IMG/VR virus record: IMGVR_UViG_3300021963_000033
Direction: 5' to 3' (one strand)
DNA length: 64,000 nt
Source of the DNA: a virus
Lineage: Duplodnaviria; Heunggongvirae; Uroviricota; Caudoviricetes
Positions 33,304 through 38,758 of the stretch are shown one piece after another. The first letter of the stretch is position 1, and every line of letters starts with the position of its first letter. Below the pieces are notes generated by a model that was not told the DNA's origin, ran no database searches, and saw only the letters and a list, made by a program, of their open reading frames with translations. Made by a program: the position numbers and the translations under genes.

Positions 33304-33379
33304 TGGTAGACCCTGTTGGATTCGAACCAACGACCTGCGGATTAAGAGTCCGATGCTCTACCGACTGAGCTAAGGGTCC
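33304..33379 (-). tRNA. tRNA-Lys(CTT)
   Basis: Loop CTCTTAA; canonical arms. Confidence 0.7.
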
Positions 33380-34994: not shown

Positions 34995-35071
34995 CCATTT
35001 ATAAATAAGTTTGTGTGGTTCACGATGTTGACGCATCCAACCACTCTAACGCTTTCAAGGAGCATCAGCAC

Positions 35072-35569
35072 ATGATTATATATCTCTACGTCAAACAACA
35101 TTCTATTACTGGACTAAAATATTTCGGCAAAACCAAACGAAATCCATTTACATATAATGGATCTGGTACTAGATGGTCAAATCACATAAAAAAACATGGT
35201 AGTAAATTCATCACTACCATAGAAATATGGGGATTCGACGACCAATCATGCTGCACAGACTTTGCCTTAAGATTTTCAGAAGAAAATGATATAGTAAAAT
35301 CCGCCGATTGGGCAAATCTAAAACCAGAAGATGCCCTTGATGGCGGTAAAACCATGGAGTGGACAGAAGAAAAACGATTAGCACAAAGCAACCGTTTGAA
35401 GGGTAGAATTTGGTCTGTCGAGAGAAACATCAAAATGGCAAATTCTAAAAGAGGTAAAAAAAGACAAGTTCTAGAATGCCCCCATTGTGGTAAAATAGGC
35501 GGGGACAATAATATGTCACGTTGGCACTTCGATAATTGTAAATGGCGAAGGTGCTCAGAATCGAACTGA
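35072..35569 (+). CDS. GIY-YIG homing endonuclease with NUMOD3 motif
   Basis: IIYLYVKQHSITGLKYFGKT is GIY-YIG. A NUMOD3-like EEKRLAQSNRLKG follows. AAGGAG SD. Only clear plus-strand gene in the array. Confidence 0.65.
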   Translation: MIIYLYVKQHSITGLKYFGKTKRNPFTYNGSGTRWSNHIKKHGSKFITTIEIWGFDDQSCCTDFALRFSEENDIVKSADWANLKPEDALDGGKTMEWTEEKRLAQSNRLKGRIWSVERNIKMANSKRGKKRQVLECPHCGKIGGDNNMSRWHFDNCKWRRCSESN

Positions 35570-35607
35570 GTTCTCAAGGTTTTGGAGACCTGCGGATTAC
35601 CATCTTC
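35543..35607 (-). tRNA. atypical/truncated tRNA-like element (CCA anticodon loop, Trp-like)
   Basis: Canonical T-arm CTCAGTTCGATTCTGAG, acceptor 3' strand plus CCA, loop CTCCAAA, but only about 10 nt in place of a D-arm. Its T-arm overlaps the GIY-YIG stop. Confidence 0.35.
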
Positions 35608-35630
35608 CCCCACCGACGCAAACTTAGAAA

Positions 35631-36495: not shown

Positions 36496-36594
36496 ATAAT
36501 AATATACACATTGTTGGACCCGTCTGTTCCAACTTTTCCCTGCTCGTAGCGGGTTGCGAGTTCCCCTCCTTGCGGTCGGGGCAATGTGTATTAG

Positions 36595-36679: not shown

Positions 36680-36806
36680 AAAAAGAGCGACCACCTACAG
36701 TGTGCCTTGATCGATTACGTCCGGACGCTTCGATCTTCCCAGATAAAGAATACAGTTGCAACTATATCTTTACCCTTTCGCGGGTTCAGCAGAGGTGGTC
36801 TATATT

Positions 36807-36882
36807 TGGTGGAGAATAACGGGATCGAACCGTTCACCTTCTGCGTGCAAGGCAGACGCTCTACCGAATGAGCTAATTCCCC
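36807..36882 (-). tRNA. tRNA-Ala(TGC)
   Basis: Loop CTTGCAC; canonical arms. Confidence 0.7.
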
Positions 36883-38038
36883 AACGAAAAAAACTTATTA
36901 GAAGAATGCACTGGGTTCCAGAACCTCCCGTATTAGTGACGGGCAGTGCACTCATCTAATAAGTCTTTGTAAACCTTGAGATTACAGGTTTAATTGAGTG
37001 CCTTTGGACCGTACCGACTTCCTTGCGAGAAGTGTTAATCCTTTATCCACTAAAGTCCTTGCGGATTCTCTAGTATCACTCAGTGCTGCCTTTTTTGAGG
37101 TCTGGCGTTTGACCTATCATGCTACGCTATTCGTCCATCATTCTCCCGTCTGCCTTGCGAGCAGTTCGGTTCCGCTAAGAACCTACGTCTTCACTTCGAA
37201 CAACCACTTCATCCTTGCGAGAATCCGTGGACCCAATTCACTTTCGTGTCAGGTATTAAGCACCTTTCACGTAGCACTGGAGCAGTCTTTCGCTTTTATA
37301 TACAAACCAGGAATTGAACCTAGATCGACAGTTTAAGAGACTGTTGCTTTACCTTTAAGCAATTTGCGAACCTACCAAGAAGTGCTGCTCCAGCAGATCC
37401 ATACCTTGTTAGATACAGAATACCACACTCCTCATGTCTTTCGTCTTGCGGACTAATCAACCATGCTTCAAGTCTCCCCTCATCGGTTTAACTTTTGCAT
37501 TGCCACCTTGCCTTTTCACGCGAATGATCAGACTCAATGACTATCCGTTAGTATTCAGCACTCATAGGTTTGGTTCGATACAGTTAGACCACCACAGTCT
37601 ATTAGAACTCACCGACCGGCTCTGTTCGTATCCTTTCGGACTTATATCACCTACTTACTGCCTACTGCCATTCAACTGACAGGGGATGCTTTCGTCACAG
37701 GTTTTACCCAAATGCAACGAGTCATCCCTAACTCGGACTTGTATAGATAGACCATCACTGGCGCAGTTACGTAGGAGTCCCTGCTTTGGCCACATTACTG
37801 TGGTTATCTTAACGACGCTATACCGCCATTCCTATTTTTCTACTATACCCTAATACTAGGGAAAAGTAAATAGATTTTTGAAATTATTTTCAAAAAACTT
37901 TTAATGAACATAATGGCAACTGAGGTGTCGACACGCTACTGTCGGTAATTTCGCTCTTTACGTTCCTATCATAGAGCGATGAGAACGCATTCTCAACCTC
38001 CCCCAATCACTTGGTCGCCACAGGAACTTCCATTATAT
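36883..38038 (-). ncRNA. ORF-free structured region inside the tRNA array; candidate large ncRNA or degenerate tRNA-like elements
   Basis: No credible ORF on either strand. At least five copies of CCTTGCG(A/G) (37022, 37047, 37153, 37213, 37443) plus two more at 36556-36580. tRNA-like 3' domain at 37300-37344 and tRNA-like 5' domain at 37700-37745. Strand assumed from the neighbours. Confidence 0.3.
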
Positions 38039-38758
38039 TCAAACTCTATTAAGTCTATCTCTACAGATATCTAATGCTTTATCGTTTATGTCACAACCTA
38101 TAAACCTTCTTTTCAAGATTTTGCTAGCAACTAAAGTTGTGCCTGAACCCATAAACATATCCAATACAATACCATCATTTGGACAAGACGAATCTATTAT
38201 AGGATATAATAACGCTAATGGTTTTTGCGTAGAATAACCTACTCTTTCTGTTTTATCATTTTGCCCCAGCATAGGAATATTCCAAACATCGTCAAGGACT
38301 TTACCAGCTTCATTATAATATTTTTCTTTAGCATACCCTCTCGGAGCAGTAGAAGAATAAGGTTGGCGTATGTATTTAGAATCTACGTTGAAGAAATAAT
38401 TATCTGACAAGGAGTATCTAAAAATTGTATCGTGCCTTTTACCAAAGTCTTTCTTTTTCCTTGGAGCAGAGTTATAATGCCATATAATTTCATTTCTAAA
38501 ATTATCTTTACCAAAAATCTCATCCATGTTAAGTTTCATGCTGTGTGATATATTATAATCGCAATGTATGTATATTAACCCCGTTGGTTTCAATACACGT
38601 TTGCACTCTAACAAAATTGGAGTAAAGTCTATGTCTATAGAATCGTCATAGTCCTTGAATTTGTTTCCCGTGCCGAACGGAACGTCTGAATAGATTAGAT
38701 CAATACTATAACTTTCTATATTAGAAAGAAAGGATAAAGCATCACTATGGTATATCAC
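38039..38758 (-). CDS. beta-class DNA N6-adenine/N4-cytosine methyltransferase
   Basis: Motif IV variant DLIYSDVPF (DPPY-like) near the N-terminus and motif I MFMGSGTT near the C-terminus, as in N6_N4_Mtase enzymes. Confidence 0.65.
   Translation of the reverse strand: MIYHSDALSFLSNIESYSIDLIYSDVPFGTGNKFKDYDDSIDIDFTPILLECKRVLKPTGLIYIHCDYNISHSMKLNMDEIFGKDNFRNEIIWHYNSAPRKKKDFGKRHDTIFRYSLSDNYFFNVDSKYIRQPYSSTAPRGYAKEKYYNEAGKVLDDVWNIPMLGQNDKTERVGYSTQKPLALLYPIIDSSCPNDGIVLDMFMGSGTTLVASKILKRRFIGCDINDKALDICRDRLNRV

Follow-up and report, generated by a model that had tools for sequence, protein, structure and literature searches.

What fills a gap of some 1.15 kb, without any plausible protein-coding frame, in the middle of a phage tRNA array? 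The question is raised by positions 36883-38038 of a 64,000-nucleotide (nt) stretch of viral DNA (IMG/VR record IMGVR_UViG_3300021963_000033; Caudoviricetes), here called the window. An earlier note, made from the sequence alone, had pictured the interval as a large structured noncoding RNA with a tRNA-like part, and had offered three explanations: a tRNA split by a long insertion, a molecule resembling transfer-messenger RNA (tmRNA), or a graveyard of degenerate tRNA genes. The general picture was borne out, and a covariance-model scan put a name to the RNA. At gathering thresholds, a single Rfam family other than tRNA is found in the entire window, namely GOLLD RNA (RF02032), on the minus strand, to which all features of the window described below belong unless noted otherwise. 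It is almost certain that the interval holds a complete GOLLD gene, consisting of a 5' domain, a 3' domain, a tRNA-bearing linker and a 3' bracket hairpin. This degree of confidence applies to identity and architecture only; assembly into a cage and function are graded apart. The RNA measures about 860 nt (37830 to 36973); inclusion of the 3' hairpin brings it to about 940 nt. Its location inside a minus-strand tRNA array, also stated in the earlier note, was confirmed with ARAGORN, which called 22 tRNA genes spanning 30.6-39.3 kb, all on the GOLLD strand.

The match to RF02032 covers positions 36973-37433. Its score of 196.8 bits (E = 5e-54) compares with a gathering score of 150, and the alignment runs through model positions 1-416 of 416 without truncation. 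RF02032 models the conserved 3' domain only, and the match corresponds to that domain, variable linker included. All consensus helices are present in the cmscan alignment, including the long-range pairing around the multi-hairpin core; about 20 positions are flagged as non-standard pairs. The domain is kept in the nine homologs of the alignment. A permissive scan (E ≤ 1) of positions 36700-38300 added to GOLLD nothing more than the tRNA-Ala at 36810-36882 and a tRNA at 37299-37369, which lies within the GOLLD match. The Rfam check that the earlier note had itself suggested thereby returned a full-length GOLLD above the gathering score. No match to group I introns, group II introns or RNase P RNA was obtained, either at E ≤ 1 in 36700-38300 or at the gathering score in the window.

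GOLLD RNAs combine a universally conserved 3' region with a less conserved 5' region, and their members exceed 800 nt (PMC12286853). The 5' region of the window was therefore aligned with its relatives, giving ten non-redundant members that extend from a conserved 5' hairpin to the junction of the two domains. RNAalifold and pair counts on these ten homologs delimit a 5' domain of about 395 nt at 37435-37830, which begins with the conserved hairpin GGCGGUAUAGCGUC (window position 37827) and ends with the hairpin GUC-CGCAA-GAC. The predicted fold has 105 pairs in 22 helices, 79 of which pairs show changes on both sides with pairing kept. Paired cells amount to 94.6%, as compared to 75.3% after shuffling of columns and 32-40% after sliding of partners by one to three columns. 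The covariation score is 0.601 versus 0.222 for the shuffled alignments, and none of 500 shuffles reached any of the observed measures. Because both the pair counts and the covariation exceed all shuffles and slid controls, 37435-37830 is a genuine structured 5' domain. Two of its helices will matter below. The 5' strand of long-range helix 6, GUCCGAGU (37731-37738), pairs with 37543-37552; all of its cells are paired and seven of its eight pairs change on both sides. Helix 7 (37683-37728) is formed by GGGAUG (37728-37723) and CAUCCC (37688-37683), with 96.3% of cells paired and both-side changes in six of six pairs, the variants being GGGAUG/CAUCCC, GGGUUG/CAAUCC, AGAGAUG/CAUCUC and AAAGUUG/CAACUU. 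The hairpin that helix 7 encloses is enlarged in the window and in L018, the closest relative. The comparison with homologs, likewise suggested in the earlier note as a search for compensatory changes, thus disclosed dense covariation in support of the GOLLD helices and, as described next, of a local tRNA cloverleaf. Measured between the first conserved base and the terminal GUAAUCUCA, the RNA is 851 nt long in the window and 819-857 nt in the homologs. Apart from a sequence match of the 5' region to that of env-38, discussed below, every defining feature of GOLLD that can be addressed in silico is found here, with the universally conserved 3' domain joined to a structured 5' domain that is specific to a subfamily.

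The linker of the 3' domain contains a tRNA-like cloverleaf at 37298-37370, which falls in an unpaired stretch of the Rfam model (approximately positions 64-140). It was called tRNA-Lys(CUU) by ARAGORN and scores 53.1 bits as an Rfam tRNA. Its anticodon loop, CUCUUAA, has seven nucleotides, with U33 and anticodon CUU; the D-arm is local (GCUU/AAGC), and the GG of the D-loop and the T-loop GGUUCAAUUCC are canonical. Both ends of the element are covalently continuous with GOLLD. The earlier note had correctly described the anticodon-like hairpin, the T-arm and the strand TTTGTAT (37300-37306), as well as the absence of an encoded CCA. It erred in stating that the 3' strand has no local 5' partner, since UCGCAAA (37369-37363) pairs with it and completes the cloverleaf recognized by both programs, and in stating that a G3-U70 pair is lacking, since the local pairing contains this wobble. 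The acceptor stem has five of seven pairs, with mismatches at U1-U72 and C2-A71. By comparison, all 21 free-standing tRNAs of the window encode CCA and have six or seven acceptor pairs, and one of them, at 33304-33379, is a canonical tRNA-Lys(CUU) with 56% identity to the inner one. The G+C content of the inner tRNA is 37%. Its D, anticodon and T stems show both-side changes in 10 of 14 pairs among 15 distinct homologs.

An inner tRNA is found in all 21 members of the subfamily, including the window, and its sequence does not follow that of the surrounding RNA. Between the window and L018, identity is 98% and 94% in the two domains and 68% in the inner tRNA, whose anticodon is CUU in one and UCU in the other. 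The reverse is seen with L053, which shares 64% identity with the window in the 5' domain and 91% in the inner tRNA. Relatives L043 and L027 are 96% identical to each other in the 5' domain, as against 65% in the inner tRNA. Across near-identical GOLLD scaffolds the anticodons read Lys-CUU, Arg-UCU, "Leu"-UAG and His-AUG, and they also vary (UCU, UAG, AUG) inside a single type of inner-tRNA body. The "Leu-UAG" versions have a class-I body with a short variable loop. It is thus the shape of a tRNA that is selected, its decoding identity not being fixed. The pattern is mosaic with respect to the scaffold and suggests an inner tRNA that is exchanged in the manner of a cassette, which we regard as a modest and mildly new observation; tRNAs in the GOLLD linker were already known, and what is new is the cassette-like behavior. 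The G3-U70 wobble is common to the window, L053, L043 and L067, with G3-C70 in L018, L027 and L066. G3-U70 is an identity element for alanine. In the inner tRNA it is probably a neutral, one-sided change, given that pairs 1-72 and 2-71 are mismatched and that the element has no free 3' end.

A further trait singled out in the earlier note was the recurrence of CCTTGCG(A/G). Exact copies of the motif occur at 37021, 37057, 37153 and 37213, in addition to one at 36568 in the preceding spacer. The copies reported at 37022, 37153 and 37213 thus exist, the first with a shift of one base, and so does one of the two spacer copies; that placed at 37047 is actually at 37057, that listed for 37443 is a variant (TCTTGCGG), and 36556 reads GGTTGCGAG. 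The whole window contains 6 matches where 2.28 are expected, and the four copies within about 200 nt represent a strong local excess. On the minus strand, CGCAAG is present five times in the 858 nt of GOLLD, a density 17.5-fold that of the rest of the window. The explanation is structural: the reverse complement of the repeated CCTTGCGAG reads C-GCAA-G and corresponds to GNRA tetraloops with a C-G closing pair, each of which caps a GOLLD hairpin. The motif thus represents structural loops and not a repeat family. In the cmscan alignment, the CUCGCAAGG at 37213-37221, also picked up by the motif search, coincides with a consensus CGCAA loop (model positions ~196-204), while that at 37153-37161 is part of the 3'-domain hairpin CUGCU-CGCAAG-GCAG. 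The loop at 37057-37064, CCGCAAGG, caps the hairpin formed by UACUAGAG and CUUUAGUG. A third CUCGCAAGG, at 37021-37029, extends the penultimate hairpin of the 3' domain, appearing as an insertion in the model hairpin, and is nearly invariant among homologs (alignment A3, columns ~851-860). The GUC-CGCAA-GAC at 37443-37453 is the terminal GCAA hairpin of the 5' domain (helix 22 in the RNAalifold fold, supported by pair counts). Loops of the GNRA type make long-range contacts in large RNAs. In the solved GOLLD structures, A-minor, tetraloop-receptor and kissing-loop contacts hold together the fold and the oligomer (PMC12286853, PMC12990946).

The flanks of the RNA carry candidate transcription signals. 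A consensus scan located a sigma-70-like promoter candidate at 37842-37870, in which TTTACT (37870-37865) and TATAGT (37847-37842) are separated by 17 nt and preceded by A/T-rich sequence. In L018, L043, L027 and L053 both hexamers are conserved, with unchanged spacing to the 5' end of GOLLD, and the relatives present the variants TTTACA or TTGACA and TATAGT, TATAAG or TATAAC. GOLLD thus probably has its own promoter at this site, and transcription would start near 37835. At the opposite end, the 3' bracket hairpin (36887-36968) folds as a long Y with a free energy of -39.8 kcal/mol (z = -6.4; none of 200 shuffles equally stable). It is followed by a run of seven U residues and ends 5 nt from the tRNA-Ala. 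Its outer stem, CUUAUUAGAUGA/UUCUUCUAAUAAG, is conserved, recurring in five homologs (L018, L043, L027, L066 and L034), and 7 of 19 pairs show both-side changes in five sequences, the window and four aligned homologs. The interior of the hairpin is variable, and among close relatives it can be wholly different while the outer stem is retained; in L018, it includes a T-arm-like sequence, GUCCGUUCGAGUCGGGA, some 60-90 nt after GUAAUCUCA, which the window does not have. A role of the hairpin as an intrinsic terminator is plausible, yet uncertain, since the long U-tract is found in the window and L018 only.

Relatives of the element were retrieved from viral contigs with the conserved block at the domain junction, CCGCAAGNCGAAAGACA, used as a 16-base pattern. 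Of its 50 matches, 33 were not recognized as GOLLD with nhmmer, as expected of chance matches. With the window and three deposited phages counted, the subfamily comprises 21 GOLLD sequences. Full-length identity to the window is 68-94% among its viral-contig members, the nearest being an IMG/VR contig (L018; 94%). Homologs on IMG/VR viral contigs have a common gene order, with Thr, Asn and Met tRNAs preceding GOLLD and Ala, Leu, Phe, Asp and Gly tRNAs following it, and the promoter-like site is kept. A megablast search of deposited phages with 20 kb around the locus gave only tRNA-sized matches and no close cultured relative. The best tblastn matches of the large subunit of ribonucleotide reductase (RNR) were 55-62% identical and scattered over Alcaligenes and Pelagibacter phages, and were not informative.

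The nearest deposited GOLLDs, scoring 160-187 bits, belong to four alphaproteobacterial phages: the roseophages DSS3_MAL1 and MD18 (the latter of Phaeobacter), BL57 of Caulobacter and Phosso of Sinorhizobium. None of the four records has GOLLD annotated. Their 3' domains are about 70% identical to that of the window, their 5' domains share alignable blocks with it (the junction block is an example), and all four have a tRNA at the equivalent position of the linker. As in the window, the genes are located in or beside tRNA clusters. The inner tRNAs are Arg-UCU or Gly-UCC, in contrast to the CUU of the window. DSS3_MAL1 and MD18 also differ from the window in having a two-piece tmRNA directly downstream of GOLLD; the window has none. 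The two-piece genes, of the permuted, alphaproteobacterial type, were found at 1523-1939 of locus L001 (DSS3_MAL1), 1272-1687 of L002 (MD18) and 2738-3056 of L003 (BL57), the last lying within 1 kb of GOLLD on the opposite strand. A linkage between GOLLD and tmRNA may be worth a survey. In BL57, the coding sequence BL57_146c, annotated as a hypothetical protein (L003 2370-2576), lies on the strand of the GOLLD 3'-domain match (L003 1674-2160) and directly upstream of it. The 5' domain of GOLLD is expected at this place, making it likely that BL57_146c is a spurious gene call.

GOLLD RNAs are encoded in phages and prophages near tRNA islands, and one of them, env-38 from a marine metagenome, was shown by cryo-electron microscopy to form a 14-mer nanocage (PDB 9MEE) with the linker inside; tRNAs are sometimes found in the linker (PMC12286853). 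A 12-mer GOLLD from S. agalactiae has been described as well, along with a tRNA in J13/15 (PMC12990946). The env-38 RNA and that of the window both match RF02032, share the two-domain layout and a length of ~830-860 nt, and both have a variable linker in the 3' domain and adjoining phage tRNAs. The 5'-terminal hairpin of env-38, GGCCGCUAUGGUCGUC, is similar to the GGCGGUAUAGCGUC of the window. They differ in that the linker of env-38 has no tRNA, in the additional 3' bracket hairpin of the window, and in that the env-38 cage has been solved while the window RNA is known from its sequence. A second parallel is provided by a Mycobacterium GOLLD inside a cluster of 32 tRNAs, which gave a weak Northern signal and whose inner pseudo-tRNA was not expressed (PMC6582537). 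Compared by description, it resembles the window in its large, horizontally acquired tRNA array and inner pseudo-tRNA (PMC6582537), and departs from it in its setting, an actinobacterial chromosome or prophage, and in its inner tRNA, reported as Phe (PMC12990946). ROOL RNA (RF03087) shares with GOLLD the large size, the location in phages or prophages near tRNA islands, the ability to form a nanocage made solely of RNA, and a disordered internal linker (PMC12286853), whereas its sequence and secondary structure are unrelated; no Rfam match to ROOL was found in the window.

How do the explanations offered by the earlier note stand against a GOLLD gene? In the split tRNA, or the tmRNA-like molecule with tRNA-like ends, a 3' half (37300-37344) and a 5' half (37700-37745) would pair over some 400 nt of inserted sequence. 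The elements on which this proposal was built do exist: AUACAAG (37744-37738) is complementary in all seven positions to UUUGUAU (37306-37300) in the window, and CGAG and CUCG (within 37718-37735) are able to form a D-stem. Their role in a tRNA was, however, refuted by the homologs. The distant AUACAAG is part of a near-invariant block, CAUCUAUACAAGCC, although the tRNA 3' strand varies, so that its pairing falls to 2-5 of 7 where that strand is most diverged (L027, L066, L046, L034 and L044). The local acceptor strand, on the contrary, forms 5-7 of 7 pairs in each of the ten homologs and follows changes of the 3' strand with compensating ones, as in L034 (CGCAAUA/UGUUGCA), L044 (UGCAAUA/UAUUGAU) and L066 (7/7). 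The proposed D-stem has 69.4% of cells paired, hardly different from the 66.0% of shuffled columns (109 of 500 shuffles as high). Its bases belong elsewhere, the CGAG to the 5' strand of helix 6 and the presumed D-loop to the GGGAUG of helix 7, where they are 96-100% paired and 13 of 14 pairs covary. A distant match of seven in seven is itself at the level of chance, a rough estimate (0.375^7 × 800 positions) giving about 0.8 expected, and a complete local cloverleaf is called by both ARAGORN and Rfam. As to tmRNA, ARAGORN found none in the window and no Rfam tmRNA family matched at E ≤ 1 in 36700-38300, whereas the same tools detect the tmRNA next to GOLLD in DSS3_MAL1 and MD18. We give the split arrangement practically no credence. 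Just as little can be said for a graveyard of degenerate tRNA genes or a nonfunctional spacer. Such debris would not be out of place within an array of 22 tRNA genes, and the single tRNA-like element present does have a weakened acceptor stem; but it is the only one in the interval, the scan at E ≤ 1 revealing no other, and the remaining ~790 nt are GOLLD, above the gathering score and with dense compensatory substitutions. The latter imply purifying selection on structure and leave the graveyard with a negligible probability.

That the plus strand might code for proteins of 112, 81 and 55 amino acids is equally far-fetched. Both the window and several homologs do have stop-free stretches on this strand; these are explained by the composition of the sense GOLLD strand, whose 58% purine content makes stop codons scarce on its complement. 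None of the three ORFs has a Pfam match, the frames are disrupted in homologs by indels of lengths not divisible by three and by one to six in-frame stops, and the pattern of substitutions is that of compensatory changes in RNA helices. The view of the earlier note that no credible ORF is present was thus upheld. A different alternative accepts GOLLD and concerns its passenger: the inner element could be a decoding tRNA-Lys(CUU) and GOLLD its precursor or carrier, from which RNase P and RNase Z would release the tRNA for CCA-tailing and charging. The cloverleaf is maintained by compensatory changes, the D-loop GG, the T-loop and the seven-nucleotide anticodon loop with U33 are as expected of a functional tRNA, and storage or release of tRNAs has been considered in the literature (PMC12286853, PMC12990946). 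Against it are the mismatches at 1-72 and 2-71 and the missing CCA in a phage whose every other tRNA encodes CCA, and the existence in the same phage of a canonical Lys-CUU tRNA. Moreover, the short variable loop of the "Leu-UAG" versions and the change of anticodons within one body type look like drift or switching as opposed to conserved decoding, and the inner pseudo-tRNA of Mycobacterium had no detectable expression (PMC6582537). On balance we consider a decoding role unlikely.

Some observations do count against the interpretation of the locus as a complete GOLLD gene with a non-decoding inner tRNA. The inner tRNAs of homologs L037 and L066 look canonical, with acceptor stems of 6-7 base pairs and an encoded CCA; some branches of the family may thus free the tRNA and put it to use. 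The env-38 construct has a 5' end, AUGGCCGCUAUGGUCGUC, similar to that of the window, but its 5' region, which comprises P1-P13 of the published consensus, cannot be aligned by sequence with that of the window: when the 5' domain of the window was added onto env-38 (MAFFT --add), identity was 39% and 38 of the 105 predicted pairs were canonical, which is the level expected by chance. Finally, the promoter, start site and terminator are predicted at the level of consensus sequences.

With the locus read as GOLLD, the solved structures permit some conjectures about how the RNA works. By homology with env-38 (14-mer) and the S. agalactiae RNA (12-mer), the window RNA would likely self-assemble, without protein, into a closed cage of 12 to 14 subunits, in which the 3' domains would form rings, the 5' domains caps, and the linker with its tRNA module would lie inside. 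GOLLD expression rises during phage lysis, and a ribosome pull-down has been reported (PMC12286853). GOLLD could act as an infection-phase RNA scaffold tied to the translation-support module of the phage, with the inner tRNA serving as a tethered, tRNA-shaped structural or ligand-binding module; we put this forward as a tentative guess, possible rather than probable. A module is preferred to an ordinary decoder because of the missing CCA, the five of seven acceptor pairs, and the canonical Lys-CUU tRNA already present. A bolder version, which we think quite improbable, would have the non-decoding cassettes displayed in the cage as mimics, so that the cage serves as a decoy for, or a trap of, host factors specific to particular tRNAs. 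If true, 12-14 tethered tRNA mimics inside each cage might divert anticodon nucleases, modification enzymes or ribosome-associated factors, and the cassette would be swapped as the target changes.

GOLLD is among the largest noncoding RNAs of bacteria and phages, and has a solved nanocage made of RNA only. The present locus adds a complete and well-delimited example from an uncultivated phage, with some 20 homologs that define a covariation-supported variant of the 5' domain. An inner tRNA found throughout the subfamily yet swapped like a cassette is a usable clue to function and merits a family-wide survey. For annotation, a search for GOLLD and ROOL is advisable in any long ORF-free gap of a phage tRNA array before the gap is dismissed as junk or as a split tRNA.

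Upstream of GOLLD, a gene for an N6/N4 DNA methylase (38039-38758; PF01555, E = 3.9e-48) separates tRNA-Met from GOLLD. In L018, L043 and L053, tRNA-Met is just 156-288 nt upstream of GOLLD, from which it follows that the methylase is an insertion into the array of this phage. A search for relatives by way of this neighboring methylase gave 13 viral loci, none with GOLLD. The spacer between the methylase stop codon and the GOLLD promoter (37871-38038) lies outside GOLLD and can adopt a closed multibranch fold (z = -3.0); part of it is also found in L053, upstream of the L053 GOLLD. Closed multibranch folds are predicted as well for the spacers between tRNA-Phe and tRNA-Leu (36496-36594; z = -3.6) and between tRNA-Leu and tRNA-Ala (36680-36806; z = -3.2). 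The two are bracketed by stems of 8-9 base pairs (ACACAUUG/CAAUGUGU and GACCACCU/AGGUGGUC), and the first contains a GCAA-capped hairpin that corresponds to the motif copy at 36568. A tRNA-like element at 35546-35617, 13 nt from tRNA-Pro, was detected by Rfam (35.5 bits) and not called by ARAGORN. It has five of seven acceptor pairs and no encoded CCA, and could be either a pseudo-tRNA or an atypical tRNA. Two mechanically listed ORFs overlap it, 35182-35613 on the minus strand and 35015-35569 on the plus strand.

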